A DNA stretch of 64,000 nt from a virus. The position numbers were made by a program, and so were the translations under genes. The notes below the pieces were generated by a model. It searched no databases and was not told where the DNA came from. It was given only the letters and a program-made list of their open reading frames with translations. Where the stretch lies: the IMG/VR virus record IMGVR_UViG_3300035698_016083, positions 3,248 to 67,247 of that record. One strand, given 5' to 3'. This document shows, one piece after another, positions 25,967 through 53,628 of this stretch (within the stretch, counting starts at the first letter, position 1; each line of letters begins with the position of its first letter).

Positions 25967-27703
25967 TTATACCGCGCCAACAACTTCTTCGAAACTTACG
26001 CCTGTTCGCGTAGCGACAAAGTTCAATGTAACATTGTTAATTGACTGAGCCGGGTCTACGAAGATCGAAGCCACGAATTCGTTATTATCTATAACGGTTG
26101 GTGTGTTGTTAGTTGTATCACAAATTACTGAGTATTCTGTAACACCTCTACGTGATTTGATATCTCTTAGATATGGTTCTACCTTACCTAGGAAATCCGC
26201 TCTTGTAAATTCATCGTTGAATTCGAAGATTACATCGCGCGCTGCCTTTGCAATAGCTCTTTCCATTGATAGGAATAGACGGCGTACGTTGATTCTATCG
26301 AACGCTGATGGACGTCCAAGTTTTGTTTTATCCCCATAAAGAATAATACCTTCTCCTGGGAAATTAGTGATTGCATTAATACTAGATCTGTAAAGTGAAT
26401 CACGATCTGTTTTTAGAGGTGAATAGGCAACATCCTGAACACCCACATACTGACCTCTACGAGAACCAGCTGGTGAATACCAAGGTGCGGACACCTTATC
26501 TGAAGCAGCCATAATTCCTGCAGTTGAGGAAGCAGCTGGGATCCAAATCATTTTATCGTTATATTTATCATACACTTTCAAGTAGTTATTATCTAAGAAT
26601 ACGTAAGATGATGCATTTAAACCATCCGCAAAAGTCTTAGAAGAAGCTACTCTTGTTGAACTACCTATAATTGCTTCGCGCGGTGGGGAAGCTATAACTA
26701 TGCAATCTTTTCTCTGTGTTCCTGCAATTGCTGCTAGATCCGCTACCACTGTAATCTGATCCGCATTTGAAGTCATACCCGGGGCGATTAGGAAATCAAC
26801 GGTTGTTGTTTCTTTATCCTCAAAGTGATCAAAAGCAGCTGCAAGTTCTGAAGTTCCTAATGAACCAGAATTTACTCCACCGGAGAAGGTGAAAGATGTA
26901 GCTACTAGAGTTGAATCACCGTTGTAATTCTTAGGTGTTCCAGGGGTTAGTGCAGTACCAGCTGCGCCAGTATTTGTGAAATCAGAATCAAATCCTACCA
27001 TTTTAACATATTCTGATTTATTATTTATTACATCAATCGCATAATTACTAGTTCCGTTACTATTTTTAGCATCGGTTGCAAGTGAGACAAAAGGATATTT
27101 TTCAAGAATAGTACCAACAGAACCTGTGATTTCTCCGGTTTTATCTATAACTACAACATGGGCTTCATCGTAAGTACCATTTCTATCTTCTGCATAAACT
27201 GATGTATATGGTCCTTCGTTAAATTCATCCTTATATGTCCATCCGTTCCATGTTCCGTGATCTGAGTCTGCTGGACAGATTTGAACCTCAATGCTATTAC
27301 CAAGTGACCCTGGGAATTTAGCAATGTATGTGTGATCGCTATCACCCAGAGCTGAAGTTTGATTATCAAAATCTTCTTCGTTTTTTACTATGGGTGCGTC
27401 AGCTGATGCATTTGCTCTAGAGTTTCTTGCAGCAGAGGTGACTTCTCTTACAACCATAAGGTTGTCTGAGTATCTTAGAAAGTATACTGATTGGTGAAAA
27501 TCTACTGAATTGTTGTTGTCTGGTGTTCCGAATGTAGAAACCAATCCTGCTTCATTAGCAGTGAGAATTGGTTCATCGACCGGACCCCAATTAAAGTTGC
27601 CTGCAATTACGCCAGTAGAAGATGCTATGTTAGCAATGCGACCTGAAAGATCGATTTCTCTGTAGTTTACGGCAGGAGACGCTGAGGGAATGCCTAGAGT
27701 CAT
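25967..27703 (-). CDS. gp18: Tail sheath protein gp18
   Basis: SPAVNYREIDL, FNWGP, PWYSPAG, GDKT and SAFDRINVRRLF. Confidence 0.97.
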   Translation of the reverse strand: MTLGIPSASPAVNYREIDLSGRIANIASSTGVIAGNFNWGPVDEPILTANEAGLVSTFGTPDNNNSVDFHQSVYFLRYSDNLMVVREVTSAARNSRANASADAPIVKNEEDFDNQTSALGDSDHTYIAKFPGSLGNSIEVQICPADSDHGTWNGWTYKDEFNEGPYTSVYAEDRNGTYDEAHVVVIDKTGEITGSVGTILEKYPFVSLATDAKNSNGTSNYAIDVINNKSEYVKMVGFDSDFTNTGAAGTALTPGTPKNYNGDSTLVATSFTFSGGVNSGSLGTSELAAAFDHFEDKETTTVDFLIAPGMTSNADQITVVADLAAIAGTQRKDCIVIASPPREAIIGSSTRVASSKTFADGLNASSYVFLDNNYLKVYDKYNDKMIWIPAASSTAGIMAASDKVSAPWYSPAGSRRGQYVGVQDVAYSPLKTDRDSLYRSSINAITNFPGEGIILYGDKTKLGRPSAFDRINVRRLFLSMERAIAKAARDVIFEFNDEFTRADFLGKVEPYLRDIKSRRGVTEYSVICDTTNNTPTVIDNNEFVASIFVDPAQSINNVTLNFVATRTGVSFEEVVGAV

Positions 27704-27780
27704 TTTATTCTCCTTGTGAAATTATACGGCTTATCATAATACGTTTATATCAATCACATCTATTTATGAATATTTTCGAT

Positions 27781-29784: not shown

Positions 29785-30552
29785 CTATTCTATAAAATGT
29801 GTCCAAGTATCATTAAAGCCATAATCTGAATCTGGTCCTACACCTGGTGGTGTGGGTTCAACTTCTAGTCTACTGACATGACCATCAGAATCGGCGTTCT
29901 GTAAGTAAAAATCAACGATTGCTTTATTAATAATTGCTGTTTCTAATATCGGTCCGTAAAAGCCTACTTTCATTTCAAATTCCATTGTATATACAATTGT
30001 TCTTCTATTCTCCATATCACCTTCAAAATCGTCATTAAACGTTACGGATTGTAACGTTAACGGTACATCTTCAGAGAGATTAGGATATTCAGGAATTGGG
30101 ATAATACTAACACTATACGCGGGTGGGAAATACGGAATGATTTGCTCTACTACCTGTAATGCATCGTCCTGTGTTTTTGTATAAATGTTTAATGCAAAGT
30201 TTACAATATACGGAACACCAGGATAAACCCTATTACTTGATGTAGGAACATCAGTAGGTTGTTTAAATGTATTTTGATTTTGTAGCTGTCTAACTGAATC
30301 GTATGCTATATTTGTGATTTCAAATGACATTCTTGGAAGCTTAATAGCTACCTGTGTATCTTCTTCAAGATCTGGATGTTCTCTGATTCTTTCAAGAAAT
30401 TTTCTTTTAGCGCCATATGATAAAGGCACCTTTACTTGACTGATTACTTCACCAGCTGCATTTTTTCTTATGATGTGAATGTTATTGAATAATGCGCCAA
30501 AGGTTGACACAGATTTCATTATTCTACCGTGATAAAAGTGACCACTAAACAT
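29785..30552 (-). CDS. gp15: Tail sheath stabiliser/terminator gp15
   Basis: HFYH...FGALFNNI...KVPLSYG...LPRMSFE...QVVEQIIPYFPP. Confidence 0.93.
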   Translation of the reverse strand: MFSGHFYHGRIMKSVSTFGALFNNIHIIRKNAAGEVISQVKVPLSYGAKRKFLERIREHPDLEEDTQVAIKLPRMSFEITNIAYDSVRQLQNQNTFKQPTDVPTSSNRVYPGVPYIVNFALNIYTKTQDDALQVVEQIIPYFPPAYSVSIIPIPEYPNLSEDVPLTLQSVTFNDDFEGDMENRRTIVYTMEFEMKVGFYGPILETAIINKAIVDFYLQNADSDGHVSRLEVEPTPPGVGPDSDYGFNDTWTHFIE

Positions 30553-31427
30553 TAGTTATTCTCCGGTTCACCAAATGGATTTGACTCAGACCAATCTAAC
30601 AATGTAGATGCTTGATCTTTAAAGTCTTCATTTTGGGAGTTTACTTGTGCAAGTTCATCGTCAACCGAAATTATGGTTCTTGTAATTAATGATTCGGATG
30701 CTGTGATACTACCTGCTATAAATTTATGATAAAGTCCATCGTCAGCGCCAATGTGTGCTAATTTAAGAATATTATCTGAATCGTTGTAATACGTAATCTT
30801 ACCAGTAATAATAACACCGCCAGCTAATGATTGTGATACATTTTCACCAATGATAAAGTCTGCTCCGTCTGAATCTGCAAGATTAAGTACTAACTCATAT
30901 CCGCCCCGTTCAATGCTATCGATTTCAACAATACCTGTATCAAGATTCTCGTCGTTATATTCGAACAATTCACATTTAAGTTTATATGTCGGTAGATCAG
31001 ATATTTTGAAGAACGGTTGCTCGTGTTCTACGTGCATAATCTCAAACATAGAACCTGATAATGGGAGATATAAAAGATCACCCTCGTACGGTCGCGTGCC
31101 CGTGATTTCATTATCATTACTTCTAACTGTCTGTAGCCATCTTTTTCTAGAAACAATCATCGTTACTTGGTCGCGGATTTCCACTCCCCATTTAGCATAG
31201 ACGTCTCCACCCTCGAATCCCTGTGGATTCTCAATATACATTTCTATTTTATGAGAGGAATTAAATGAGGAAGGTACGTCATCTCCAAATACTCGATTTT
31301 CGTTCACTATATCTCTCGGAAGATAATAAACATCTTGTCCATACAATTTTAGAGACTCTATGATAAGATCTTCATATAGATTCTGTTCGGATTTAACATT
31401 ATCCGAGAAATAAAGGTTTCTAGCCAT
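30552..31427 (-). CDS. gp14: Neck protein gp14
   Basis: EQNLYEDLIIESLKLYGQDVYYLPR, RPYEGDLLY and SESNPFGE. Confidence 0.95.
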   Translation of the reverse strand: MARNLYFSDNVKSEQNLYEDLIIESLKLYGQDVYYLPRDIVNENRVFGDDVPSSFNSSHKIEMYIENPQGFEGGDVYAKWGVEIRDQVTMIVSRKRWLQTVRSNDNEITGTRPYEGDLLYLPLSGSMFEIMHVEHEQPFFKISDLPTYKLKCELFEYNDENLDTGIVEIDSIERGGYELVLNLADSDGADFIIGENVSQSLAGGVIITGKITYYNDSDNILKLAHIGADDGLYHKFIAGSITASESLITRTIISVDDELAQVNSQNEDFKDQASTLLDWSESNPFGEPENN

Positions 31428-34692: not shown

Positions 34693-36690
34693 TTAGTATG
34701 TTCCGCCGTCGATGTTATATATGGTAGCTAGACCCGCGGTAAGTGTGAACTGATCAGAGTCAAAGTTTGCTACACCCGGATTAGCAGTGGTTGCAAGTTC
34801 AGCAGATACAGTGAATGTATTTGAACCGTCATCGTAAACTAGATCGATAGCTTCGCCCGCTAGGAACAGTGAATTGATTCTATCATCTACACGTTCGTCT
34901 GTGAAGAATAGATTTGTAACTTCTGAAAAGTCTGAAGTGTCTAGAGTAACTGATCCACCAAGTGCTGTAGCATTACCGTTTATTGTAATTGAATCATTGG
35001 CAAGTTTTGCGTTTGCAATAGAACCTGCAAGCATAGCGTTGGTAATACCAACCGCTTTTACTCGAAGTATATCACCTGAGATCTCAATAGATGAATCATC
35101 AACTCTTACTGAGAGTGTATTACCTGTTTTTAGAAGTCCGTCACCATCAGTGAATGATCCAGCACCAGAGAACTGAGCAACCGGAAGAGGTGTTGTTTCT
35201 AGTGTAGGTATACCATCGTGCGTGAAGACAAATCCTTGATCAGCGTTTTCTGTACCTTCTTCGACGAATACAAATGTACCACCGGTTAATTCTTCGGCTG
35301 TATCTGCATCGGTTGAACGTGATGCTGCGCCTGAAGCAACAACAATATATATACCATTTTCTTCTGCAGCAGACTGATCTTTAAGTAGAACCCTATCACC
35401 AGTAACAAGTGTTACACTGTCAAGTGAATCGCCATTCTCTAATCCGTTAGCTAGAGAAACGTTAGAACCTGTAGAGGCTAATCTTACTGATCCTTTAACA
35501 TCAAGTCCAGAGGTTGTAGCATCAACATATTCTTTTGTAACAAGTGAGTTGGCTGTAAATCCTGCTCTGTCTTTATATGACGCAGGAACTGTAACCGTAC
35601 CTGTACCGTTAGGTGAGAGTGATAAATCACCATTACCATTGGTTGTTGAAATATCATTTCCGTCGATAGTAATATTATCAACGTCTACTGATGTTAGACC
35701 GTTAAGATCTGTTATTGTAGCGCCAAGAGCAACTGCATCTGTACCAATTGTGATATCATCATTAACAAGTTGTGCGTTGGATACACCAAGCGCTTTAATT
35801 GTAACTGCACCCGAGGCTACAGCAAAGTCGGCAGTTGCAAAGGATGCAATACCCTTAGCTGAAATCGTTGCATCATCAACAGATATAGCAAGTTGATTAT
35901 TTGTAATTGCTGTTTGAACAGGATCTGTACCAACGAAGGTAAGAGTATCTGTTCCAACTATAACATCATCTGTACCCGTATCACCAGCTAATGAAAGAGT
36001 GGATGAAATTGAGGCTGTTGTAGCATTGGTAATTCTACCTTGCTGATCAATTGTAATAACTGGAATCGCAGTAGATGAACCATACGCTGCAGGTGTTACT
36101 CCGGTGTCGTCAAGATCAATAGTAATACCTACGCCCGAGGCGACAGTGCTAATACCAGTTAGACCCGTAATAGTAAGATCTGAGTTAGCTAAATCAACAG
36201 AACCTGAACCTGTATCACCAGCTGTATTTAGTACTGGCGAGGAACCTGTTGCAGTATCAACATACTGTTTTGTAGCTGCATCTTGTGGGTCTGAAGGATC
36301 TACAACATTTGTAATGACCGAGGTCGAAGCATTAATAACACCAGAACCATCTGGTGATAGAATTAAATCCCCATCAGTGTCGGTCGTTGAAATTGTATTA
36401 CCATTAATGTCGATATTATCAACAATTAAATGATCAATTTTAGAAGATGCATCGACTATAATTGCAGACGATGCAGTTAATACACCAGCTGTATGATCCA
36501 GCATATTTGTAAAAATCTCACCGCCTATGACTACGTGATTCGCTGCGTCTTCAGCGGTTTCCGTACCCATACCAACGTATAGTCTTTGTCCCCCAGCGCC
36601 AACTAGAGAGGAATAAGCCATCTCTCCCTGACGTAAAGTGGCTGGGTTACCTGTAACCGCCGACCTCTTTATTCTAATTATTGCTGCCAT
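34693..36690 (-). CDS. Tail fibre protein
   Basis: IRIKRS...GEMAYS N-terminus, DAATKQYVD, GLDVKGSVR...DRVLLKDQ..AEENGIY module, IDGGTY end. Confidence 0.8.
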   Translation of the reverse strand: MAAIIRIKRSAVTGNPATLRQGEMAYSSLVGAGGQRLYVGMGTETAEDAANHVVIGGEIFTNMLDHTAGVLTASSAIIVDASSKIDHLIVDNIDINGNTISTTDTDGDLILSPDGSGVINASTSVITNVVDPSDPQDAATKQYVDTATGSSPVLNTAGDTGSGSVDLANSDLTITGLTGISTVASGVGITIDLDDTGVTPAAYGSSTAIPVITIDQQGRITNATTASISSTLSLAGDTGTDDVIVGTDTLTFVGTDPVQTAITNNQLAISVDDATISAKGIASFATADFAVASGAVTIKALGVSNAQLVNDDITIGTDAVALGATITDLNGLTSVDVDNITIDGNDISTTNGNGDLSLSPNGTGTVTVPASYKDRAGFTANSLVTKEYVDATTSGLDVKGSVRLASTGSNVSLANGLENGDSLDSVTLVTGDRVLLKDQSAAEENGIYIVVASGAASRSTDADTAEELTGGTFVFVEEGTENADQGFVFTHDGIPTLETTPLPVAQFSGAGSFTDGDGLLKTGNTLSVRVDDSSIEISGDILRVKAVGITNAMLAGSIANAKLANDSITINGNATALGGSVTLDTSDFSEVTNLFFTDERVDDRINSLFLAGEAIDLVYDDGSNTFTVSAELATTANPGVANFDSDQFTLTAGLATIYNIDGGTY

Positions 36691-36950: not shown

Positions 36951-37065
36951 AAATCCTTATTCTAAAGATTTCGATATAACCTGTTATGATTCTCTTTATG
37001 ATAGTTACTTTTCCAGTTCTTATTAGAATCCTACTTTTGGAACTGGCGTTAAAATCTATCATAGT

Positions 37066-37419
37066 CTATCTTGTTATTTGTGGAGTAACTTCTAGTTTCC
37101 CCTCTAGAATTCTCTCAATTATTGTATTCGCATCACTGTCAACATAAGACAATTCAATGTCATAAAGATATCTACCGGCTTTCATTCCTCCAGTGGTAAG
37201 GTTGTCTAGCGATATAATCACTTTACCGTCTATAGTTGGGGTATCAATAACAGTGACAAATGATGTAGCATCGGAATCTACCGTTGTATAATTCTTTCTA
37301 ATCATCCCAGTAATAGTATGTCCCGCAAGTTCTTTTTTTGAACCGTTCTTATCCGTAAGATAGAGCTCTAGAGATGCATCTGACCCCTGGTCGACTATAA
37401 GATCTTCATATTGTGCCAT
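37066..37419 (-). CDS. Conserved virion structural protein
   Basis: LIVDQGSD...IRKNY...AGRYLYDIEL...RILEG.LEVTP; TATAAATA at 37443-37450. Confidence 0.75.
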   Translation of the reverse strand: MAQYEDLIVDQGSDASLELYLTDKNGSKKELAGHTITGMIRKNYTTVDSDATSFVTVIDTPTIDGKVIISLDNLTTGGMKAGRYLYDIELSYVDSDANTIIERILEGKLEVTPQITR

Positions 37420-41316: not shown

Positions 41317-42237
41317 TTATGTTTGTCCTATTTTTAGATAAGTTGTTGATACTGTCGGCGCAGTACCGTTTGGGAATTCTTGCGCGCGATAATCGTCTGT
41401 ACCAACATATCGGGTTGTATAATTACCTGAACCGTTTAATTTGGTGTTAGCCATACCGGAACCCCTATTTGTACCGGTAGATTGAGAATATGTTATTTTA
41501 GAACCAGAAGTATTTTTAGCAGTATCTCTTATTGAATCAGCTAATGCTGTTCCTATTTCAGCACTACTATATTGACGAAGATCATTTGATCCATCTATAT
41601 ATAATGGAATAGGAATTGTTCCCGCTGCGGCGGGGTCAACGACATGTAAATAATAAGATGTGTTAGTAAGGGGTTGGTCTAGTGTTTCTGGTATACCCCC
41701 TGATGTATATAAAGCGGTATTAGCTTGCGTATCAATAAAAACCGGTGTACCGGATACTAGAGTTGCGCCACCTACTGAACTTGAAGTACTAATAAAATAA
41801 GTTCCGGCTTGTTGGTCTGTAGTAGAACCTGAACATAATGTATCAATTGCATCTAATGCAAATGTATCTCTCATGTCAGCAGCACTCATAGCCTGAATAT
41901 CATTAGAACCGTCAAAATATACCGGGTTTACTTTATTACCAACATCCGGAGAAGTGGTTGCCTCGTATGCAGGAAGAATTTTATTATAATTAACAGTAAC
42001 CGTTGACGGTTCAGCGGTAGTTGCCTCTGATGGATAAGTTGTCGTCCCGCTAGAATATGCTCCAGCTTGAAGTCTGGTATCTGCAATGATACCTAGAGAT
42101 CCACTACCAACAGAGAGTAGTGATGATGGATTCAATCCATATTGTCTAATCATTTCAATTTTAAGATTAGCAATGTCTGTTGAAGACATTTCTTTTAGAT
42201 CAGTTCCGTCTAATTTTAGAGGAGTTCTTACGGCCAT
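41317..42237 (-). CDS. Virion structural protein with three internal repeats
   Basis: TPLKLDGTDLKEMSS / NPVYFDGSNDIQAMSA / IPLYIDGSNDLRQYSS; C-terminal YRAQEFPNG. Confidence 0.7.
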   Translation of the reverse strand: MAVRTPLKLDGTDLKEMSSTDIANLKIEMIRQYGLNPSSLLSVGSGSLGIIADTRLQAGAYSSGTTTYPSEATTAEPSTVTVNYNKILPAYEATTSPDVGNKVNPVYFDGSNDIQAMSAADMRDTFALDAIDTLCSGSTTDQQAGTYFISTSSSVGGATLVSGTPVFIDTQANTALYTSGGIPETLDQPLTNTSYYLHVVDPAAAGTIPIPLYIDGSNDLRQYSSAEIGTALADSIRDTAKNTSGSKITYSQSTGTNRGSGMANTKLNGSGNYTTRYVGTDDYRAQEFPNGTAPTVSTTYLKIGQT

Positions 42238-42239
42238 TA

Positions 42240-43202
42240 TTAAGCACCTGCAGTATACATGGTTTTCAGCGTAGATCCAGCTGAATTTTTTATGAGAAGT
42301 GTTTGAACAGTATCAAGTTCTGCGGAACCTACTGCATCATCAGCGATTTTAATCTGAGAGACAGCGTTTGTCCCTATTTTATCGATAGTGACAGAACCAT
42401 CATTAATTTTATTCTCTGTCACCGCATTCGTATTTATCTGTCCTTCGGAGACGCCAAGAGCTTTAATTGTGACCGCTCCCGAAGATACCGAGAAGTCGGC
42501 AGTCGCAAATGATGCGATACCTTTATTCGATGTGGTTGCATTTTCACCTGCAATCGTAACGGTATTGTTTGTTATAGTCGTATCAACACCTTCACCACCG
42601 GTGAACGCTAATGTGTCAGTTCCTACTATAACATCATCCGTACCTGTATCACCAGAAAGAGAAAGCGTTGAGGAAGTTGCGGCGGTAGTGACCAAGGTAA
42701 TACGACCTTGTTGGTCGACGGTGATAACTGGGATTGAGCTTGCTGAACCATATACTGCAGGGGTTACTGCAGTATCTTGTAATTTAGCAGGAGATATGGA
42801 ATTAGCGAGAATGTTATCACTATCAACAGCATTTGCAGAGAGAGTCGTTGATAGAATAACATTACCTGTTCCATCAAACCCTACTATCGACGCGGTGACA
42901 TCGCCCGTTATACTAAAATCTCTAGACGTTGCTAAGGCTGTTGCTGTATCCGCATTACCCGTTACGTCACCCGTTACATTTCCGATTAAAGATCCAGTTA
43001 GAATCCCAAAAAATCCACTATCTGCTGTAACAGAATTAACGAGAAGATCTACTTCAGAACCTAAAGTGGAGTTGAAGGCGTCAACAAGATTTGAATCCCC
43101 TCCGATAAGAAGACTGATGTCACCAAAATCGTCTGATAGTTCATTAAATTTACCTATCAGACCTTCGATTGAGGTGTTTACGCTTGTTTTAACTTTTGCC
43201 AT
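42240..43202 (-). CDS. Tail fibre-like protein
   Basis: GNVTGDVTGNADTATAL, YGS...IPVITVDQQGRIT and AVT..KI repeats. Confidence 0.75.
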   Translation of the reverse strand: MAKVKTSVNTSIEGLIGKFNELSDDFGDISLLIGGDSNLVDAFNSTLGSEVDLLVNSVTADSGFFGILTGSLIGNVTGDVTGNADTATALATSRDFSITGDVTASIVGFDGTGNVILSTTLSANAVDSDNILANSISPAKLQDTAVTPAVYGSASSIPVITVDQQGRITLVTTAATSSTLSLSGDTGTDDVIVGTDTLAFTGGEGVDTTITNNTVTIAGENATTSNKGIASFATADFSVSSGAVTIKALGVSEGQINTNAVTENKINDGSVTIDKIGTNAVSQIKIADDAVGSAELDTVQTLLIKNSAGSTLKTMYTAGA

Positions 43203-43422
43203 TATTGTTCTCGACTATTTTGAGTAAGAGTGATTTAATTTCTACCATATCTTTTGACAGATTTTCAACCTTGTCTTTAAGATTCCGGTCTTCTTCAAAT
43301 TTCTTTTTTCTTCTTACCTTAGCTTCTTTTGCAGCTCTAATTTCACTTGTATTTATATTGATTATCGCGCCCGATTTAGCTCTCGCTAAATTCGGGCTAG
43401 ATTTTACTTTTACTAATTCCAT
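43189..43422 (-). CDS. Small conserved protein downstream of the VrlC-like gene
   Basis: VKVKS.PNLAR..SGAIIN...EIKSLL pattern. Confidence 0.7.
   Translation of the reverse strand: MELVKVKSSPNLARAKSGAIININTSEIRAAKEAKVRRKKKFEEDRNLKDKVENLSKDMVEIKSLLLKIVENNNGKS
43350..43357 (-). promoter_or_regulatory. Candidate internal late promoter for 43202-37454 (fibre genes plus modification cassette)
   Basis: Exact TATAAATA inside the small ORF, about 150 nt upstream of the ATG at 43202. Confidence 0.45.
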
Positions 43423-46400
43423 TAAACGCTCAGTGCGATAACTCTAAGATCTCTGAACATTGGTACTTTAGATGAATTAGAAGATTTCATAACAATCTTA
43501 ATTTGGAACGTTGTGAATGGGGATAGATAACCTCCAGGTCCACCTATTGTATATCTATATTCTCTAAAGACATTATTCTCGTCACTCTGAACAATATTGT
43601 CTAATACTGCAAGTACCCAATCTGTTGTTGAAAGCTCACCTTCATCAATAGCTTTATAATATACGTCGAAGTTAGCCGCGTTCGGTCTTGTTGCCGCTAA
43701 TATTACTTTAAGACCAACAGCATCTTCAGATAATGAGACGGGGACTGTAACATATTTAGAAGCGGCCGCACCCGAGCTGTGATGTGTTTCATCTACATAA
43801 GTTAATGGAACATTATATCCAGTAGTTGGTGACCCGATAGGGTTATCAATCATATTTGATATTGTTGTTAATGAAGCTCTGTTCATATGTATCATTGGTG
43901 ACACTGCTGAGTTACCAGTAACCATATCAATTTTAACTGATGCAGATCTCACACCCCCACCTAATTCTGAAGTTTCAATTGATGGTGAAGCAATAACTCT
44001 AGGTGCATCAAAATGGTAATCTGATAATTTATTCAGATACGTATCATATGAAGTATCCTTTGAATAAGGTGTTTCAGATCCAGCATAGCTTTTACCCGTT
44101 AGGAATTTAGCTGATAATGATGTATTAGTTGAGTTAGGAATAAACGTTTCAATTGAAGGTATTACAACGTCCATTAACATATTTTCAGATGCTATAGCTG
44201 TATCACCCCCGCCGCGCGCGTCAGATATAGCCGAGGAATCCCCAGCAAATCTATAACCAGTAACGTCCTGAGAGGTAATCGTTCTAGCACCCATAATACT
44301 TGTTCCTAGAATACCACCAATAGTTCCTGAACTATCTAGTCCAGCAATATTAACAATATCGTTTACGAACATACCGTGATTAGGATGAATTATTCTTACA
44401 CTTGAACTACCACTATCTAGTAGAACTGGATCTGCAGGTAGAAGTCTTATAGGAACATCTGCATTTTCAAGTACAGCAAAGCCGCCAGCAGTATCAAAAT
44501 CTGCAGAATAAACCTGATATTTTAAATCCTGTAGCTGTGAAGGTTCCCATACTGATCCATTCTGAGATTTATAGAATGACCCCATAGAAGGTTGTTTAGT
44601 AATTTTAACCTCTGTTGAGCCTAATACGAAATCACCAAGCGTAGCAATAAATACATTATAGCTATTACACTGTGATAAAAATACCACAGCATATTCTGTT
44701 TGTGGATCTAGATATATTGGGGAGTCTAATTCAAAGTCTGTAACCGCAGTACCATCAGAAGATATATTAACGTCTCCTGGGTACAAGAATTTAATACCGT
44801 TTCTAACAGCTTCTGTTGCAGAAGGATATCCATTTACCATAGGACGTATCTGACATTGTACAGGTATTGAAGCATCTTTACTAGAGAAGTAAGCTCTAAT
44901 TTTTGTGATGTAAGCACCTGATATTGTGTCAACGTAAAATGATTGTGCAATAGGTTCATAACGTCTTAGTGCAACAGTACGTGATACGGTTATTGTTGTT
45001 CTTTCTTCAACACCGATCGCTGTATATTCTGCCGCTGCTTGAGATGAAGCCTCTGCTGTATTTGGAATACTAATATCGAAGAGAGCAAATTCTCTTATTC
45101 CTGTTGCAAATCTGTTGTTTGCATTATTTGGAATAAAGAATGAACCTTCTATTTTACCGTTCGCGTCACTCGTAAGAGTAGTTGAACCACCTGGATGGGA
45201 GGTTAATACTCTAGAAACATTTTCTGTAGGTAGAGTAGAGAATCTCTGGAAAGTTTCTGAAGGGGCAGATATACCACCGCGTACCCAATCACTTACATCT
45301 TTACCGTCAAAGAACGGGAAGTGACGTGAATTAGGTAGTAGACCTTCTGCTTTAAATCTAACTCTACGTGATCTAATGAATGGAATGGTTACGGTTGAGG
45401 TGGTTCTACTTGTCTCACTCGATCTTAAATCAACAGCAATACGCTTAAGAGCATATTGGAAATCGTTTTTAAGACTACCTGAAATAGAATTTATTCCCAT
45501 TGAATTCAAGAATGTGTTACTTTGATAAGAGGAGGTTCTACCGATACGACCAGCGTTATCTATTAGTCCCTGAGAACCCCACCATCCCCAATCCCACTGT
45601 CTCCAGTTAGGATCAACGCGCTCGAATGTTGTGATGAATCTAGAAGGATCTAGTACATTCAAGCTGTCGAATGCAGGATTAGTGGAACCGGTAATTAAAC
45701 CAGTGTTACCACGTTGTTCGCTGTTAACGAATTCTGCTGCACCGCCGTTGATTACGACAGGATTTGTTACAACGTCTTTCCATTCATCTGTTGATGGGGA
45801 AAGTACCATAGTACCAATAAAGTTTACTAGATTGAATGGGTTAACATTCTCTGTACCAGAAGCCTGTGGTTGATTAAGGAATAATATTTCGTCATATTTG
45901 ACATAAACGTTATCACCTTTTACAATGGTGTTAGAAGAAAGATCTGAATCATAAATTAATTTAATATTCTTTTCTCTAAATGATGGGCGAAGAACACCTT
46001 CAGTTATATCCATAGACGCTTTATATTCACCTGAGCTCATGTCTGAGGTTAAGTGATTAGTAAAGTTGTCTGTTAGGAATCCTGATTTGGTTCTATTAAG
46101 TCCTGATGAATCCAACACGTCTATTGTAGACGCTTCAAGATCCAGCATGCTCAATACAGCATATTCTTCTACCTTGTCGACTCTCTTTTCTAGTCGACCT
46201 ATATCTCTCATTGTATATCTTTTGTTTTCAATATAATTAATACTTGCTTCTGTTGCATCTAGAGTATAAGCATTAATGGATACTGAATATAGACCCATTG
46301 CATCCTTTGGGATGTCAGGGAATATAGGGTTCGTTGACGAAACACCTTCTAGATATTCAAGTTCATTATTATCTTTTAGAATTAAATAGTCTCTGCGAGG

Positions 46401-48581
46401 CATGTAATAAGATGCATCAGCTGTAATAAGATCTGTATTCTGAGGTAATTCATTAACTCGAGCAGTCGCAGCAGAGTATCCTGCGCCGGTATCGTCCTGG
46501 CGAGGTCTGAAGTCGAATACATTTCTGAGTGCTGTTACCGATCCATCCGCAAGTTTGTGATTTGGTATGTCTGAATAATCAATCTGACCGTCATAAGAAG
46601 TCTTATTAAAGAAATCCCCGACGGAGCTGTGTGCGAAATATTCAAATCTAGTGAACACGTTTCCTACTGGTGCTGTCTGTGATGCACCAAGAACCATACG
46701 ACCAATGCCGTAATAGTTATCTCTTTGTCCATTGTCAAGATAGAATTTAGAAGATACGTCTGTACCATCACTATCAACAAGGGTTGTTCTTAAAACGGAG
46801 TAGATATCTGCTTTACCAAGATCTAAAAATTCAAGTCCATTACCATCAGAGTCTATAGTTGTTGTAATTGTATCTTCAGTTAGAGTTTTAACTCTAGGTG
46901 TAGGGGAGGCTTTGTTTACATAATGAGCAATACTAATATTACCACTAGTTAGACCCGTGCCTGAAATGGTTGATGATGTTGTACCAGAACCATTAATTGA
47001 TGGGGATAGAACATCACCGTCGACGTCAGATGTTACTATCCAATCTGTAGTATTGGCAAAGGTTTCTCCACCAGCAGAAAGTGTAATAGTAGCCTCGCCG
47101 GAACCATTAACCGCAGCAGTTGTTTTTCTCTGAACTGTTAATGAGATGTCTGAAATCGTCGCCGGGCGAATCTCTGGAAAATCAAATAACGTATTGTTGT
47201 TACTTGTTTCTATTAGTGCAGCCTGACTTGCAACTAGAATGAGATCTCCATAATCTATTGTTGATAGTCCTATAGATCTAGTGGATCTGAAACTAGATCC
47301 ACTATTCATATTAATATCAAATAGATACATTCTGTAACCAGCGCCGTCTTCTTCTATTGCTCGCACGCGTGCGGTACCAATAGTAGATCCACCGTGTGTT
47401 ACTGCAGATCTAAGGTTTACTAATCCAAAATCTATAAGATCTGGAAGACCAAGGAGTGTGGAAATCTCAACATAGTTACCGTAATTGGCAGGAACTACTT
47501 CATTATTTTTTATGTATGTGCTTCTTGGTTTATTAACTGTAATTCTCTGAGCTGGAAGGTCTGCACGATATCCATTAACGTAGCCTATTCCTGCTGAAAC
47601 ATTAAGCTCCAGAATACTATCGTCGCTATCGTGATCTTCAAATTTAGCAATAAATGAATTTACTGTATAGTTACCAGATTCTTCTTTTGTGCGCTCTGCA
47701 AGAATATCTAGAATTTTATTATATTCTGTTGATCCGTCATTTGTTCTAAGAACTTCACCATCAACGATACGCGCGACGTATATAAAGATCTGATCAGAAT
47801 CAACTAGATCTTCTCTTGTAAGAATTAATTGAATTCTATATCTATCCGCACCGGGTGCAGAAAGGTTAGGAACATCGCCCTGATTATCATAAAGGGATAC
47901 GTCATCTGAAGCAGTAACAATATCTTCTTGTACTCTAAATCCTACATTGATTGTAGGGTTGACTGAATACTTTTCAATAATAGTTGATTGTTCATCTGCT
48001 CGTATAAAGTGACCGTGGATAAAGAAATCACCTTCAGCAACGTGGGCTTTTGAAGCCAGACCGAAAGTAGGATTTTCTACGGTATCCGTAGTCTGAATTT
48101 CCAGTGTACCTAAACCACCACTGATAGTGATTGTCTCACCTGGTGTAAACGTGATAGACTCTTCGCCAGATACCCCGGATGAAGTGTCGCTATATCTAAC
48201 ATATAGTGTACCCGGATCGGAACCATCTACATCTAATGCTTCAAGTATAACACCTACCACTGAAGATGTATCACCTGTAGCGGTTTCACCAACTAATGTT
48301 GTGAGGTCTAGGGGTAAAGCATACGTTGTTGTGTTTAATTTCACAAATCTGTATTTGTTATCGATGTAAACGTTTGATACAGGGTTAACTGCTGCGCCAT
48401 CTTTAAATATATTTCTTCCGAATTTTTCAATTTCAGCAGAAAGTATACTCTGTATTTGATTTAATTCTCTCCCTTGAAGAGCACGTCCTGCATTAAACAA
48501 GATCTTGCTGAAGTGTTTATCGTCGGCAAAGTCGTCTTTATAGACAGTATTAAAAATGGATTTACTAAATTGAGTAGTCAT
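43422..48581 (-). CDS. Large virion structural protein (VrlC/DUF4815-like)
   Basis: YKDDF...KILF..GRALQGRELNQIQS, APGADR, ERTKEESGNY, KRYTMRDIGRLEKR, NVNPF and EPIAQSF. Confidence 0.85.
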   Translation of the reverse strand: MTTQFSKSIFNTVYKDDFADDKHFSKILFNAGRALQGRELNQIQSILSAEIEKFGRNIFKDGAAVNPVSNVYIDNKYRFVKLNTTTYALPLDLTTLVGETATGDTSSVVGVILEALDVDGSDPGTLYVRYSDTSSGVSGEESITFTPGETITISGGLGTLEIQTTDTVENPTFGLASKAHVAEGDFFIHGHFIRADEQSTIIEKYSVNPTINVGFRVQEDIVTASDDVSLYDNQGDVPNLSAPGADRYRIQLILTREDLVDSDQIFIYVARIVDGEVLRTNDGSTEYNKILDILAERTKEESGNYTVNSFIAKFEDHDSDDSILELNVSAGIGYVNGYRADLPAQRITVNKPRSTYIKNNEVVPANYGNYVEISTLLGLPDLIDFGLVNLRSAVTHGGSTIGTARVRAIEEDGAGYRMYLFDINMNSGSSFRSTRSIGLSTIDYGDLILVASQAALIETSNNNTLFDFPEIRPATISDISLTVQRKTTAAVNGSGEATITLSAGGETFANTTDWIVTSDVDGDVLSPSINGSGTTSSTISGTGLTSGNISIAHYVNKASPTPRVKTLTEDTITTTIDSDGNGLEFLDLGKADIYSVLRTTLVDSDGTDVSSKFYLDNGQRDNYYGIGRMVLGASQTAPVGNVFTRFEYFAHSSVGDFFNKTSYDGQIDYSDIPNHKLADGSVTALRNVFDFRPRQDDTGAGYSAATARVNELPQNTDLITADASYYMPRRDYLILKDNNELEYLEGVSSTNPIFPDIPKDAMGLYSVSINAYTLDATEASINYIENKRYTMRDIGRLEKRVDKVEEYAVLSMLDLEASTIDVLDSSGLNRTKSGFLTDNFTNHLTSDMSSGEYKASMDITEGVLRPSFREKNIKLIYDSDLSSNTIVKGDNVYVKYDEILFLNQPQASGTENVNPFNLVNFIGTMVLSPSTDEWKDVVTNPVVINGGAAEFVNSEQRGNTGLITGSTNPAFDSLNVLDPSRFITTFERVDPNWRQWDWGWWGSQGLIDNAGRIGRTSSYQSNTFLNSMGINSISGSLKNDFQYALKRIAVDLRSSETSRTTSTVTIPFIRSRRVRFKAEGLLPNSRHFPFFDGKDVSDWVRGGISAPSETFQRFSTLPTENVSRVLTSHPGGSTTLTSDANGKIEGSFFIPNNANNRFATGIREFALFDISIPNTAEASSQAAAEYTAIGVEERTTITVSRTVALRRYEPIAQSFYVDTISGAYITKIRAYFSSKDASIPVQCQIRPMVNGYPSATEAVRNGIKFLYPGDVNISSDGTAVTDFELDSPIYLDPQTEYAVVFLSQCNSYNVFIATLGDFVLGSTEVKITKQPSMGSFYKSQNGSVWEPSQLQDLKYQVYSADFDTAGGFAVLENADVPIRLLPADPVLLDSGSSSVRIIHPNHGMFVNDIVNIAGLDSSGTIGGILGTSIMGARTITSQDVTGYRFAGDSSAISDARGGGDTAIASENMLMDVVIPSIETFIPNSTNTSLSAKFLTGKSYAGSETPYSKDTSYDTYLNKLSDYHFDAPRVIASPSIETSELGGGVRSASVKIDMVTGNSAVSPMIHMNRASLTTISNMIDNPIGSPTTGYNVPLTYVDETHHSSGAAASKYVTVPVSLSEDAVGLKVILAATRPNAANFDVYYKAIDEGELSTTDWVLAVLDNIVQSDENNVFREYRYTIGGPGGYLSPFTTFQIKIVMKSSNSSKVPMFRDLRVIALSV

Positions 48582-48589: not shown

Positions 48590-49933
48590 TTAAAGTTTAA
48601 TCAAAACTTTTATATCTTCGGTTTGTGACACTGATCTCTCGATAGCAGCTTTATTTTGTATGTATAATAGATCGCCAGAGAATATATTATTACCTGAGGA
48701 GTCTAAAGTCGAAATGGTACCTGAAGCACCTATAGCTGTTATTGTAGATCCGATGTCAGAATCGAATTCACCAAATCCGGTGTCTTCATTCTGATGATAA
48801 AAAATTGTATCCGAATCAATGTAATCAATCATACCCTGAGAACCTGAAATAGATCCTGTGAATACCTGATCAGCACTAAATGTTGTGGCGTCACCTACTA
48901 GAGTAAGCTGAATGTGATCTAAGAAATTTGCCGTAAGTGAATTAATTCTTGAACCACCAACCGTTTCAGGATTTCTAAGAAGAAGAACCTGTCTGAAATC
49001 ATTACCAATAACGAAGTCACCATTCTCATCACCCGATGGTTTTGAATTGAACATGACTATAGAGGATCTTAGATCTACTCTTGGATCTTTTCCAACACCT
49101 CGATCATCACCCAGAACCGCTCTAGCTTCTGCACCAGAACCACCACCGCCTGTTAGATTAATCTTAGCATACTGATACCCAGTACCAAAGAATAATGATC
49201 CACCTGAATCATCCATTTCAATCTTTGTAACTGCGCCGGATGCTACCGTTGCAACTGCTCTAGCCCCAGAACCATTACCTTCAATCTCAACTGTTGGTGA
49301 ACTTGTATAACCAGTACCAGAAGTTGTGACTACGATATTTAGTATCTCTGAACTATCAGCAGCATTTTGGATATCATACTGATCTCTGTCTGTAGCCGGA
49401 TCGCCAACGCCAGCGGAATCAACAAACTTAACAGGCATATAGTTAGCGCTTAGATATTTTGTTGAATCGATCGCGCCAATTGTGTAAAGATATTTCCAAA
49501 CATATCCGTCTGCCGTAATAAACGCTTCGGTGCTTGTACCGGAAGGTTTAGTAGTTGACGTAACACTTATGCCTGCGGTTGTTTTACCTTGACGTAAACA
49601 GATGTAAACGTTGTTTTCATCAGTCATAATATAATAAGAATTGGATGGGTAATCTGAAGAAGCATCATCAAACGATGTATATGTCGTACCAGAAGACCAT
49701 TTATGTCTAGGAATTACATAAGAAACATCTGCTGCTGTCTTCATTGACTGCATTGATAGTCTAGCATTTCTTTGGTCACGCGTACTGTTGACCGGATTTA
49801 CGAGAGTATCGGTCTCATCCCACTGTTCAGATTTACCAATAGCAATATAGTAATAGTCTGAATCGACAGTTACATTATTGATCAGATTATCAAATATCTG
49901 TTTCTTAATGTCGTTTGTAATTATAGCAGTCAT
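48590..49933 (-). CDS. gp8: Baseplate wedge subunit gp8
   Basis: MTAIIT, VIPR..WSSG..Y, NVYICL, DGYVWKYLYTI, NDFRQ and SGDLLYIQNK.AI.R...QTEDIK. Confidence 0.9.
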   Translation of the reverse strand: MTAIITNDIKKQIFDNLINNVTVDSDYYYIAIGKSEQWDETDTLVNPVNSTRDQRNARLSMQSMKTAADVSYVIPRHKWSSGTTYTSFDDASSDYPSNSYYIMTDENNVYICLRQGKTTAGISVTSTTKPSGTSTEAFITADGYVWKYLYTIGAIDSTKYLSANYMPVKFVDSAGVGDPATDRDQYDIQNAADSSEILNIVVTTSGTGYTSSPTVEIEGNGSGARAVATVASGAVTKIEMDDSGGSLFFGTGYQYAKINLTGGGGSGAEARAVLGDDRGVGKDPRVDLRSSIVMFNSKPSGDENGDFVIGNDFRQVLLLRNPETVGGSRINSLTANFLDHIQLTLVGDATTFSADQVFTGSISGSQGMIDYIDSDTIFYHQNEDTGFGEFDSDIGSTITAIGASGTISTLDSSGNNIFSGDLLYIQNKAAIERSVSQTEDIKVLIKL

Positions 49934-49945: not shown

Positions 49946-50935
49946 TTAAGCTACTGTTACTTCGCCTTGGTTACCAATAAGGTACCAATTTGTTCCATCC
50001 CAGATGACACTACATCCGTCGAATTGCGCAAGGGCAAATGTTGTTCCCTGTGCGAAGTTAGTTGGTGTGACAGTTGCAACACCAACACCTTTATTAGTGA
50101 ATATTTTTTCTTCTCCATCTTCGGTGCCGTCTGCAAGGGATATAGCCAAGGCAGTTGCCTTATTACAAATGATGTATGATGCACTATTAGATGCTGCTCC
50201 GTTTGCCGTAATCGTAGATGGTGTGTTTGCTACCTTTGAAAGTTTTATAGATCCATTACCTTTGGCAACTAGATCTAAGCTTATATTTGTGTCGTCACCT
50301 GATGCAGTGATCGATGGATCATTTCCAATAGCGGCATTTGAAATATCGATTTCATTTATCGCCGAACCAATTGCCGTAAGTTTAATAATCTCATTACCTG
50401 AGGCACCATTAATGGAACCTGTAATGCGTGGAGTAGTCAGTGTCTTGTTTGTTAGGGTAACACTGTGTGCGGCGAAAACGAATTCATCAGATGCACCTAA
50501 TAGAGGTAGACTGATCGTTCTGTCTGCAGCTAACTCTGCCACGCCTATAGTATATCTATGGTCAGAACTCGTGTCAAATATATCTACATCGAACATGGTT
50601 GGTCGTGTGAGAACTGCGTCTATTAACGTTTTGTCCCAGAGACTTTGTGAGCTACTGTCTAGAATAACATCACCACTTGCATCAGGTAGAACGACTGTAC
50701 GGTCTGCAGTAGGATTTACTACACCGAATATTGTTTCAAAGTCATCCGCAACTGAGCCTTCGAAGATCACATTGTCGTTTGTGAGAGTGACTCCAGTACT
50801 TAATATGTCTGAATCGCCACCGAGCGCGCGCCAAATTTCCACGAAATTATCGTTGATCTTCGTACTAATCTGACGTAGAGAATCTCCAGTACCGTCGTTG
50901 GCACTTGCTCCGATGTATATATTTTGTCTAGTCAT
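49946..50935 (-). CDS. Baseplate wedge/fibre connector (gp9/gp10-like N-terminus)
   Basis: IGASANDGTGDSLR...KINDNFVEI; PTADRTVVLPDASG and TLTNKTLT modules. Confidence 0.75.
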   Translation of the reverse strand: MTRQNIYIGASANDGTGDSLRQISTKINDNFVEIWRALGGDSDILSTGVTLTNDNVIFEGSVADDFETIFGVVNPTADRTVVLPDASGDVILDSSSQSLWDKTLIDAVLTRPTMFDVDIFDTSSDHRYTIGVAELAADRTISLPLLGASDEFVFAAHSVTLTNKTLTTPRITGSINGASGNEIIKLTAIGSAINEIDISNAAIGNDPSITASGDDTNISLDLVAKGNGSIKLSKVANTPSTITANGAASNSASYIICNKATALAISLADGTEDGEEKIFTNKGVGVATVTPTNFAQGTTFALAQFDGCSVIWDGTNWYLIGNQGEVTVA

Positions 50936-51999: not shown

Positions 52000-52038
52000 G
52001 TTTGTTTCCTATTGTTCTTTGTCTTATTTATGATGTTT

Positions 52039-53628
52039 TTACGGGAGATATGAAGAAACGTAGTTAATAGCATCACCCATTTCATTAGAGTCTGTGAAGA
52101 AGACTAGAGCGTACGCTCCGAATTCCCATGCATCAGAGTCATATGCGAATCCTAGGGATGGTCCGTTTGAACCGGTAAGATTTACATTTCTGAAAGTCAT
52201 GACGTTGTTAGCATGAACAGCATCATATAGTTGGTCTCTCGTCTTAGTATTGTCGTAAGTTGTACCGGCGATTTCTACGGAAGATCCACCGTATGTTCCT
52301 ATATCGATTTGTCCAGCACTATCATTCTGTTCCATAACACCTGCCTGATCGGATAGACCATCATATAGTATATTCGAAATATCAGTATCTTTTGCATATG
52401 AACGATAAGCCAGAGCGATGTTCATTCCGCTATCTAACCAACCAGAGTAACCTCTAATTGTCATACCACCATTGTAGCCGAACATGTGAATCGCGCCGTC
52501 AGAATCTACATGGTTACCCTGTGAGGCATCGAACGCCACGGATTCCAGAGCTATGTAGTTTCCGTTCGCACGATTATCATCCCACCACTGAACGCCGTAG
52601 GCATCGATATTATTTATTACTCCACTGTCGTATGAGTATACTCCGGTAGCTGATAGAGGTACGATTGCAGGCGCTACCACATCTGCAATCATATCACTGT
52701 CTATATAATCTTCGAATATACCTTGGTCACCTGTTTCGATAACGTTAGAAGCATCGATAGGTATAATAATTCCATCGCTGTCCATATCCATAGTAGGTGA
52801 AGTAGCTTTTTCTAAGTCTCTTACAGATCCATATAGATTTGCAAGTTCACCAAGAGTAGTACCACTATCGTAATTACCCATAACTTTGTAAGATGCCATA
52901 CGGAATTGAATATCTCCAGAATCGTATAGTACAGTCATTGGATCATCTGGTGCACTCATAATAGAAGAAACATCAAGAATAGTTTCCAGAATAATGTCAT
53001 CTGCCAGACCAATAGAGAGAGGAGCACTATCCTCAAAACATGCAATACCTTCTGTGAGTACATCTCCCGCCAAGTGGAATCCTGCAGGATGTGCGAAAGC
53101 TTTATAGAGAGTTTGCCATTGCGCGATAGGTATTCCAGACTGTATGAGTATAGAATAGATTTGGTATCTCTCATCATCAATAATAAAGCGTAAAGACTCA
53201 TACCCTATTTGACTTTCTGAAACTATAAAAATATTTTCTTTGGGATATACTATAGTAGGTGTCTCTCCAAAGAACATTCTGAAGAACCCCATTACAGAAT
53301 ATTCGGTCCCTTTTTTCCGTAAGAAAAAATTTATGACTTTTCCTACGAGTCGAGGGTCTTCAAAGAAACGGGAATTTGACCCATTTCCTATTTCGAAAAA
53401 AATTTTATCGAGGAGGGAAAGCGAAGTAGCATCGAGATCTCTTATGAGTAGGAGGTCGGTCCCGAGGATCTCTGTCCAGGAGCCCTTCTGGGCCATGTAG
53501 TCGTAGTACACATTCAGAAATTCGATAAAGGATGGATACTCCTCTATAAAATAACTAGGTAGCACATTCTCTATTGAAGGTCTACGAAGGCTCTCTGGTC
53601 TTCTATATTCTGAATGTATAATATTCAT
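52039..53628 (-). CDS. gp7: Baseplate wedge initiator gp7-like protein with C-terminal extension
   Basis: LPSYFIEEYPSFIEFL..YY, KKGT..S..FFRMFF, YPKENIF, YQIYS and HPAGF. Confidence 0.75.
   Translation of the reverse strand: MNIIHSEYRRPESLRRPSIENVLPSYFIEEYPSFIEFLNVYYDYMAQKGSWTEILGTDLLLIRDLDATSLSLLDKIFFEIGNGSNSRFFEDPRLVGKVINFFLRKKGTEYSVMGFFRMFFGETPTIVYPKENIFIVSESQIGYESLRFIIDDERYQIYSILIQSGIPIAQWQTLYKAFAHPAGFHLAGDVLTEGIACFEDSAPLSIGLADDIILETILDVSSIMSAPDDPMTVLYDSGDIQFRMASYKVMGNYDSGTTLGELANLYGSVRDLEKATSPTMDMDSDGIIIPIDASNVIETGDQGIFEDYIDSDMIADVVAPAIVPLSATGVYSYDSGVINNIDAYGVQWWDDNRANGNYIALESVAFDASQGNHVDSDGAIHMFGYNGGMTIRGYSGWLDSGMNIALAYRSYAKDTDISNILYDGLSDQAGVMEQNDSAGQIDIGTYGGSSVEIAGTTYDNTKTRDQLYDAVHANNVMTFRNVNLTGSNGPSLGFAYDSDAWEFGAYALVFFTDSNEMGDAINYVSSYLP

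Follow-up and report, generated by a model that had tools for sequence, protein, structure and literature searches.

The tripeptide aspartate-serine-aspartate (DSD) recurs in tail proteins encoded between positions 25967 and 53628 of a 64,000-nucleotide stretch of viral DNA (the window; positions 3,248 to 67,247 of the IMG/VR virus record IMGVR_UViG_3300035698_016083). The record comprises 67,247 bases, is estimated to be 39% complete and derives from an uncultured T4-like marine myovirus. A DNA search of cultured phages gave no match to the window. Its tail sheath protein is ~43% identical to that of Phage C48C1 (Kyanoviridae) and ~40% to those of cyanophages, pelagiphage HTVC008M and others, and for its gp7-like protein a similarity search returned one distant match only. 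We translated 65 open reading frames (ORFs) of the window, 28 of them in the region 25967-53628 (8,990 amino acids, aa) and 37 outside it, and compared motif counts with expectations from 2000 rounds of per-protein shuffling; paired counts are given throughout as observed versus expected.

All window genes given here with coordinates lie on the minus strand. The sheath and neck genes of the region encode a gp18-like tail sheath protein of 578 aa (25967..27703; phrog_23, E 3.8e-115) with DSD at residues 121, 146 and 239, a gp15-like tail sheath stabiliser (29785..30552; phrog_227, E 1.7e-72) with DSD at 221 and 241, and a gp14-like neck protein, head closure protein Hc2 (30552..31427; phrog_460, E 1.4e-74), with DSD at 185 and 216. 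Compared with T4, HTVC008M and S-CAM9, these sites fall into gapped or variable stretches; site 241 of the gp15-like protein is common to C48C1, and HTVC008M and S-CAM9 read DDD at that place. Judging by the T4 sheath structure, the sheath sites presumably belong to outward-facing domains. PHROG profiles, which in the window also matched terminase and a gp13-like neck protein, gave tail or tail-fibre matches for two small fibre-like proteins, one built of three repeats (33331-33897; two DSD and one DSS in the repeats, plus one DSA) and the other with one DSD, two DSG and one DSS (33900-34598). A 665-aa structural or fibre protein (34693..36690; PHROG structural and tail-fibre families) carries one DSD, and a tail-fibre-assembly-like protein of just 117 aa (37066..37419; phrog_1084, phrog_3304) carries two where about 0.1 is expected.

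A six-gene cassette, C1 to C6, follows at 37454..41315 and holds no DSD in 1,297 aa. Beyond it, at 41317..43202, lie p413 (306 aa, no DSD) and a 320-aa fibre-like protein with one DSG and a single DSD, the latter counted under gene 42240. The outer baseplate genes encode a giant VrlC-like baseplate/fibre protein of 1719 aa (43422..48581; phrog_358; five DSD), the baseplate wedge protein gp8 of 447 aa (48590..49933; phrog_438; three DSD), a baseplate/fibre connector-like protein of 329 aa (49946..50935; phrog_677, phrog_38058; one DSD) and a gp7-like outer wedge protein of 529 aa (52039..53628; four DSD), whose N-terminal part matches PHROG baseplate wedge families. The adjoining inner baseplate and hub block (53698..63905; eight ORFs totalling 3,278 aa, among them gp25 and gp6, the latter assigned by phrog_219) served as contrast set, with DSD 1 vs 1.3, DSA 0 vs 1.1 and DSS 1 vs 1.8.

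An earlier note on this DNA had counted DSD by hand for each gene, and translation of the ORFs reproduced these counts essentially exactly. The contrast it drew between structural and replication proteins is likewise found, with 27 DSD in the 28 ORFs of the region against 3 in the plus-strand/replication block (3,843 aa), and so are the further instances it listed: the gp7-like protein with ten DS[DGA] in its last ~330 aa (within residues 200-497), gp8 with seven DS[DGSA], the capsid protein with GDSS and DSNGDSS, and the protein at 33331, whose three repeats all have DS at an equivalent position. The tripeptide enrichment test proposed in the note gave 27 DSD vs 5.1 (standard deviation 2.3, z 9.7), a number reached by 0/2000 shuffles; a first-order Markov model expects 5.9-7.5. 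Outside the region, the 37 ORFs contain 6 vs 3.7, which is not significant. Among all 8000 tripeptides DSD ranks first in the region (Poisson 1.7e-11, Bonferroni 1.3e-7) and is the sole significant one, since the runner-up YPS (7 vs 1.1) stays far below significance; the same scan outside the region found no significant tripeptide.

The signal in the window is confined to this exact form. The residue after DS is D 27 times (6.3 expected), S ten times (6.9), G ten times (6.1) and A four times (5.7), and as tripeptides DSG (10 vs ~7), DSS (10 vs ~9) and DSA (4 vs ~6) are all at expectation. The wide class DS[DGSA] put forward in the note is therefore too broad for the window, its excess of 51 vs 21 being carried mostly by DSD. 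The permutations DDS and SDD occur three times each, DT[DGSA] reaches 26 vs 20.7, and SDS is wholly missing (0 vs 5.9). The contexts of the 27 DSD are mutually unrelated and their serine codons mix TCN and AGY.

The same excess was found in related viruses. Two loci retrieved through gp8 (48% identity) hold ten DSD each, against 2.5 and 2.0 expected, located in gp7-like, gp8, VrlC-like and small fibre proteins and absent from gp6 or farther upstream. An alignment of three gp8 sequences then yielded 80 further IMG/VR loci at 40-51% identity; a single-sequence IMG/VR search with the cassette protein C2 had given zero relatives, and the loci were obtained only via the gp8 alignment. In 80/80 loci DSD is enriched, with ratios of observed to expected between 2.2 and 17. 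When ORFs were classed by their best BLASTP match to window proteins, DSD counts were 126 vs 14.1 in gp7-like proteins, 165 vs 20.6 in gp8, 282 vs 40.6 in VrlC-like proteins, 49 vs 6.8 in orthologues of the 49946 protein, 25 vs 3.5 in those of the fibre protein at 33900 and 20 vs 3.2 in 18 orthologues of p413. The 142 ORFs lacking a BLASTP match were left out of these classes and contain 64 vs 14.7.

The larger sample allowed the specificity of the motif to be determined in an outer set of baseplate and fibre proteins (356 proteins, 189,428 aa). Its two most enriched tripeptides are DSD (682/91) and DSA (547/100); DSS (287/113), DSN (134/79) and DSG (147/98) are also raised. Other residues at position +1 are depleted (DSE 26/52, DSL 33/84, DSI 33/82, DSV 34/85, DSM 5/15, DST 72/123), as are the forms with threonine (DTD 48/99, DTA 80/112) and those with the first aspartate replaced (ESD 32/52, NSD 25/79, QSD 8/43, ESA 11/57), while the unrelated neighbours ASD, GSD, LSD and VSD are at expectation. 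With 85 DDS and 56 SDD, permutations are 8- to 12-fold rarer than DSD, and ADS, SAD, SDA, ASD and DAS number 75 to 250 against 547 DSA. Flanks from -6 to +6 were searched for an extended sequon and showed only exclusion of proline and a 2- to 2.7-fold excess of glycine just after the motif. Within the motif, the six serine codons are all used as often as in the background, which indicates that selection acts on the protein and not on the DNA.

As the motif had been picked post hoc by eye, chance, composition or a DNA-level signal might be thought to yield the excess. The probability of this appears negligible in view of the Bonferroni value over 8000 tripeptides, the rarity of the permutations, the repetition in 80/80 independent loci and the use of six serine codons at background frequency. 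A DNA-level motif was rejected on the grounds of serine codon usage, and local composition on those of the permutation counts.

The residue preferred at +1 differs between lineages. In the window and its nearest relatives almost all such motifs are DSD, and other sublineages use DSA equally or more; the share of DSA in DSD+DSA follows the gp8 tree, with ~0.1-0.25 in the subclade of the window and ~0.6-0.7 in others. Such a tree-structured share would fit co-evolution with the +1 preference of an enzyme. In G002, one of two nearly whole genomes of the clade (144 kb, 87% complete), DSA (49/14.0) and DSD (54/16.7) head the tripeptide ranking of the full genome. They concentrate in fibre and outer baseplate proteins (DSD 41/4.9, DSA 45/5.0); DSD counts elsewhere are 4/0.5 in sheath and neck, 1/0.6 in the head, 0 in the inner baseplate, 0 in cassette proteins and, at baseline, 8/9.1 in non-structural proteins. 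The other nearly whole genome, G003 (121 kb), has DSA 58/15.3 and DSD 49/16.6. Its genome-wide top tripeptides DFG, FGD and GDL suggest a repeat family, and a block of ~17 ORFs at 49735-68151 (loci L134-L135), mostly of 390-550 aa and possibly paralogous, contains DSA 36 vs 5.2, DSS 23 vs 6.0 and just 8 vs 4.2 DSD. The densest single case is a 1257-aa protein encoded on the plus strand after the fibre-assembly-like gene in one of the loci (L108:17573-21343), which carries 45 DS[DA] and belongs to a family, N4, with six members.

In the inner baseplate proteins of the clade the motif is depleted (221 proteins, 88,464 aa). DSS (8/42) and DSD (4/32) are their two most depleted tripeptides, DSA stands at 11/34 and DS[DAS] as a whole at 23 against 108, with the permutations DDS (24) and SDD (21) near expectation. 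By class, DSD counts are 0 vs 12.9 in gp6 (57 orthologues, 31,028 aa), 0 vs 2.3 in gp25, and 3 vs 8.3 and 0 vs 5.0 in the next two hub/inner proteins. In gp6 of the focal clade DS[DAS] is found 5 times vs 46.8, with DDS, SDD, DTD and DTA at expectation, whereas gp6 of the HTVC008M clade has 59 vs 54.2. The latter figure includes 46 DSA in 53 orthologues (L139-L218; 15.3 expected) against 1 in the 57 of the focal clade, probably one conserved site since lost in the focal clade.

A comparison with orthologues from control phages, of the kind suggested in the earlier note, showed the excess to be limited to the clade. DSD is not enriched in the whole genomes of T4 (9/13.7), HTVC008M (14/14.7) and S-CAM9 (13/16.1), nor in 80 loci around HTVC008M-type gp8 (303,633 aa; DSD 92/136, DSA 139/145) and 80 around S-CAM9-type gp8 (329,925 aa; DSD 82/113, DSA 51/99), and the VrlC-like and gp8 orthologues of these sister clades are at or below expectation. 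C48C1, counted as a whole genome alongside them, is intermediate, with DSD 38/19.2 and the excess in fibres and sheath. The top tripeptides of C48C1, GNY (89 vs 9.2) and YSR (67 vs 9.4), point to a large family of internal repeats, and a hypothetical protein of 3347 aa at 141011-151054 (34820-44863 of locus L005) has 0 DSD.

Mapping of the motif on a structural model, also proposed in the note with an expectation of loops, was carried out for gp8. The AlphaFold2 model of the window protein (predicted local distance difference test score, pLDDT, 91.8) matches T4 gp8 (1n7z, E 4e-11), and on it 7/7 serines of DS[DGSA] are in coil. Among 334 DS[DA] serines in gp8 of the clade, 259 map to coil, 58 to insertions, 9 to strand and 8 to helix, which places 317/334 in coil or insertions of a model that is 50% coil. 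The underlying alignment comprised 81 sequences, namely the window, L002, L003 and 78 of the 80 loci (L065 was truncated and L104 failed the length filter). Each gp8 carries 2-7 DS[DA] (mean 4.1), distributed over 39 columns and about ten hot loops, in which occupancy is 20-48% and the alternatives are DS[SNG] or unrelated residues. Merging of the columns into 23 sites gave at least 148 parsimony gains or losses on the tree. Typically the motif lies in loops and tight hairpin turns, often after the end of a hydrophobic strand and before glycine.

Such positions would also suit a structural role, in which the tripeptide, free of any covalent modification, serves as a turn or cap or as a loop binding Ca2+/Mg2+ and so keeps beta-rich tail proteins stable in seawater. 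Acidic loops bind divalent cations in many proteins, and Ca2+-binding loops were the alternative named in the earlier note. The pattern of such loops (DxD/DxDxDG) is, however, not seen in the region, where D.D is not enriched as a class (64 vs 58.3) and D.D.D (5 vs 4.7) and D.[DN].[DN] (11 vs 13.9) are not raised either. Relatives show a 5.5-fold enrichment of DSA, in which the second acid is missing, whereas DSE and the replacements by E, N or T, which a metal site or turn should tolerate, are depleted. Furthermore, orthologues in T4, HTVC008M, S-CAM9 and the 160 sister loci manage without the motif, and both the turnover of gp8 sites and the depletion in the inner baseplate would be left unexplained. 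We thus consider a purely structural motif unlikely. Taken together, an exact and ordered tripeptide with counter-selected variants, which turns over in loops, is enriched only in the outer proteins of one clade and is depleted from inner ones, argues for a recognition motif of an enzyme rather than for a fold or metal motif.

Candidate enzymes are encoded in the cassette, and hence inside the virion structural module, between fibre genes. The note had described a glycosyltransferase cassette at 37.4-41.3 kb, and C2, C4 and C1 are indeed recognisable as glycosyltransferases of the GT-A type with a DxD motif. C2 (38176-39033) is GT8-like, although its score for Pfam GT8 (PF01501; 18.2 bits) is below the cut-off of 24.3. 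Its D115 and D117 are invariant in 9/9 aligned homologues, and in its AlphaFold2 model (pLDDT 87.2) it has a GT-A fold: Foldseek matched the model with probability 1.00 to XXYLT1, LARGE1, LgtC, the catalytic domain of UGGT and glycogenin, at TM scores of about 0.4-0.48 and sequence identities of 8-16%, and the model also matches A64R of chlorovirus PBCV-1 (2p6w, E 2.2e-5). C4 (39661-40296) is a DxD glycosyltransferase (phrog_1962 glycosyltransferase, 2.4e-8) whose DxD is invariant among homologues and whose profile weakly touches GlyE (5gvv, E 0.047). C1 (37454-38179) is a paralogue of C4 that carries DxD, and together with a further family, N3, it groups with C4 (jackhmmer; hhalign probability 100). 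Searches of PDB sequences, run with C2 and C4 both as single sequences and as profiles, found nothing useful beyond a weak GT8 match, the C2 profile giving none at E<=1. The remaining genes are C3 (39033-39698), which has no assignment beyond a weak methyltransferase hint, C5 (40293-40808), with a weak Pfam 2OG-FeII match (21.6 bits, below cut-off), and C6 (40809-41315), a small helical protein conserved across the clade. Most cassette ORFs had no Pfam, PHROG or NCBIfam match, and scans of the cassette with these three collections revealed no GT-B family.

Homologous or analogous cassettes occupy the same place in relatives. Profiles of C2, C4 and C6 found members in the window, L003, G001, G002, G003 and C48C1 and, at E 1e-3, none in T4, HTVC008M and S-CAM9, the three complete genomes on which the control for absence of the cassette rests. 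In the 28/80 loci with 2.5 kb or more of sequence beyond VrlC, the genes are arranged as a 70-aa ORF, a short fibre gene, p413, C6, variable ORFs and the fibre-assembly-like gene, which is the downstream boundary of the cassette in all relatives. The variable ORFs encode 190-270 aa without DS[DA], and 16 of the 28 loci hold either a C1/C2/C4/N3 glycosyltransferase (13) or N5 (3). The Atlas places N5 beside nucleotide-diphospho-sugar transferase clusters (0.96-0.97, 180 shared features), which is a lead only, and by hhalign N5, N6, N7, N8 and N9 are not linked to glycosyltransferase families. C6 is rich in lysine and glutamate and has no conserved catalytic-looking residues, M1, F123 and K126 alone being invariant; its gene invariably separates p413 from the enzymes of the cassette and is present in the window, L003, G002, G003, C48C1 and 19/80 loci. 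A glycan-related gene set is found in G002 at 60445-66934 and 116665-118529 (loci L127 and L129), comprising a sulfotransferase (PF03567), a GT8/Nucleotid_trans-like protein, two GT25 proteins, a nucleotide-sugar epimerase and a fusion of HAD and sugar-phosphate nucleotidyltransferase. A short UDP-glucose/GDP-mannose dehydrogenase-like protein is present in G002, G003 and C48C1 and not in T4, HTVC008M or S-CAM9. A clade-specific protein of 316 aa, considered as a candidate enzyme, was rejected when it proved to be a primase.

Elsewhere in the window, five ORFs (385, 614, 192, 576 and 355 aa) at 16727-23705 lie between the portal and prohead protease genes. They have no BLASTP homologue in G001, L003, C48C1, HTVC008M or T4, and a weak S-CAM9 match for 22638-23705 is the sole exception. 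The ORF at 16727-17884 contains two DSD and has no PHROG match.

The acceptor could in principle receive another group. Modification of the serine or of the flanking aspartate by an acidophilic kinase, by a 2-oxoglutarate/Fe(II)-dependent (2OG-Fe(II)) hydroxylase acting on aspartate or by acylation, with the glycosyltransferases serving elsewhere, would produce the same sequon-like statistics, and the cassettes do contain methyltransferase-like ORFs and weak 2OG-Fe(II) matches, C5 and, as at best a lead from the Atlas (0.87-0.88), N6. However, the cassette scans recognised no kinase or acyltransferase, and the oxygenase matches are under curated cut-offs. This possibility therefore seems a minor one to us. 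The recurrent recognisable enzymes of the fibre module are glycosyltransferases, which makes O-glycosylation by phage enzymes the most likely chemistry.

Alternatively, the tripeptide might be a non-covalent tag, which docks a phage decoration, chaperone or fibre protein or serves as ligand of a lectin-like receptor of the host. Its confinement to the virion exterior and the constant company of C6 and p413 in the fibre module would agree with this, but three residues make a very short docking site for a protein, the motif is scattered over more than ten proteins and 23 gp8 sites with no fixed geometry, and no partner has been identified. We regard docking as rather improbable.

We therefore propose, at about even chances of being right, that an enzyme encoded by the phage modifies proteins in the cytoplasm, most likely by O-glycosylation, with D-S-D/A as its acceptor motif. 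T4-like tails and virions assemble in the cytoplasm. Late in infection, a cytoplasmic enzyme would recognise D-S-D (in sister lineages D-S-A as well and, more weakly, D-S-S) in loops exposed on sheath, neck, outer baseplate and fibre proteins and would act on its serine. We infer that the serine is modified, that the modification is a sugar and that cassette enzymes are responsible. The most likely enzyme would be a phage GT-A (DxD) glycosyltransferase of the variable cassette between C6 and the fibre-assembly-like gene, and the remaining cassette enzymes may extend or trim the glycan. Sites would be gained and lost quickly in variable loops, and selection would disfavour the motif in inner baseplate proteins, which bury their surfaces in the interfaces formed on assembly. 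The wider reading, that a large clade of T4-like phages from the sea, all uncultured, possesses a cytoplasmic O-glycosylation system of its own that is directed by a sequon, in which cassettes build lineage-specific glycans, the motif is counter-selected in buried proteins and an evolvable glycan coat results, appears to us a little less probable than an even chance. Such a tail coat could be likened to the glycan shields that enveloped animal viruses carry.

Several known systems share parts of this scheme. Freeman and colleagues reportedly described glycosylation of capsid and tail tube in mycobacteriophages in 2023. As in these phages and in chlorovirus PBCV-1, whose capsid is glycosylated, virus-encoded glycosyltransferases would decorate virion proteins, and it is A64R of PBCV-1 that the C2 model matches; we know of no D-S-D/A sequon, targeting of tail, baseplate or fibres or motif avoidance from either system. 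C2 shares its modelled fold and DxD with GT8 and related retaining GT-A makers of protein O-glycans (XXYLT1, LARGE1, glycogenin and GlyE of the pneumococcal PsrP pathway), but differs from them in its low sequence identity and in a Pfam GT8 score below the cut-off. The nearest likeness in the acceptor is offered by SdgB and SdgA, which act on staphylococcal serine-aspartate repeat proteins at a serine flanked by aspartates. According to the published account, SdgB is a cytoplasmic enzyme that attaches O-linked N-acetylglucosamine to the minimal peptide DSD (PMC8561734). Unlike the phage candidates, SdgB belongs to the GT-B class and has an inserted dimerisation domain, and its substrates are long SDSDSD repeats, whereas the phage motifs stand isolated in loops and SDS is absent from the region. 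D-S-A as an equal acceptor in phage relatives is a further difference. The literature searched, supplements not included, contained no report of a D-S-D/A sequon in phages.

The earlier note had linked the motif to the general O-glycosylation of Bacteroidota and had suggested that surface loops were selected to carry an acceptor for the cassette. Selection at the protein level and the confinement to outer-virion loops stand, but the link to Bacteroidota is unsupported. The Bacteroidota sequon is D-(S/T)-(A/I/L/V/M/T), also with S at +1, where hydrophobic residues are favoured and the preference is species-specific (PMC8550257, PMC12871550), aspartate is strictly required at -1 and in B. fragilis glutamate is not tolerated (PMC12871550), and the glycan is transferred en bloc from undecaprenyl phosphate to non-cytoplasmic proteins in the periplasm (PMC12871550). 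The phage motif shares the obligatory preceding aspartate and the intolerance of glutamate (ESD and ESA are both depleted), and DSA and DSS would fit modification of phage proteins by such a host system. Nevertheless, D[ST][AILVMT] is at expectation in the region (48 vs 49.9), the main form DSD lies outside the host motif, the phage motif is restricted to serine with D, A or S at +1, and threonine forms, DSL, DSI, DSV, DSM and DST are depleted. A periplasmic machinery would also be at odds with virions that assemble in the cytoplasm, and the cultured relatives infect cyanobacteria and Proteobacteria, the latter including Pelagibacter, Methylophilales, Ochrobactrum and Stenotrophomonas. Modification by a Bacteroidota host is thus highly unlikely. 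The Bacteroidota system nonetheless provides a precedent, as it demonstrates that a three-residue O-sequon with obligatory aspartate can exist.

A number of observations weigh against phage-encoded glycosylation at D-S-D/A. The modification is hypothetical and proposed from sequence, the solvent exposure of the sites is deduced from modelled secondary structure alone, and the glycosyltransferases could act instead on DNA, on host envelope glycans or on a non-protein acceptor. C48C1 carries cassette families and yet has no DSD in gp8 or the VrlC-like protein, and the exposed capsid protein is without any DSD. No cassette enzyme family occurs in every genome of the clade: the C2/C4 type alternates with the N5/N6 type and hhalign does not link the two, so that an initiating enzyme common to all was not identified. 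That cassette and motif occur together amounts in essence to a single phylogenetic event, and the finding of cassette families in 0/160 control loci is a weak contrast, since 8-kb flanks and a longer VrlC mean that these loci rarely pass VrlC. Finally, gp6 of the HTVC008M clade likewise lacks DSD (0/15.4, with DSA 46/15.3 and DSS 13/23.5), and part of the apparent avoidance may be family history.

Even if the serines were not glycosylated, an exact tripeptide that is 5- to 8-fold enriched in the outer proteins of the virion and depleted in the inner ones would still need explaining. If phage-encoded glycosylation at D-S-D/A is true, phage tails would have their first acceptor motif for protein modification that is defined by sequence, and for hundreds of environmental phage genomes the sequence by itself would suffice to predict modification sites. 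It would explain the variable glycosyltransferase cassettes inside the tail-fibre modules of marine myoviruses, and models of host range and stability of abundant ocean phages would gain a further layer, a glycan coat with its own turnover and lineage specificity.

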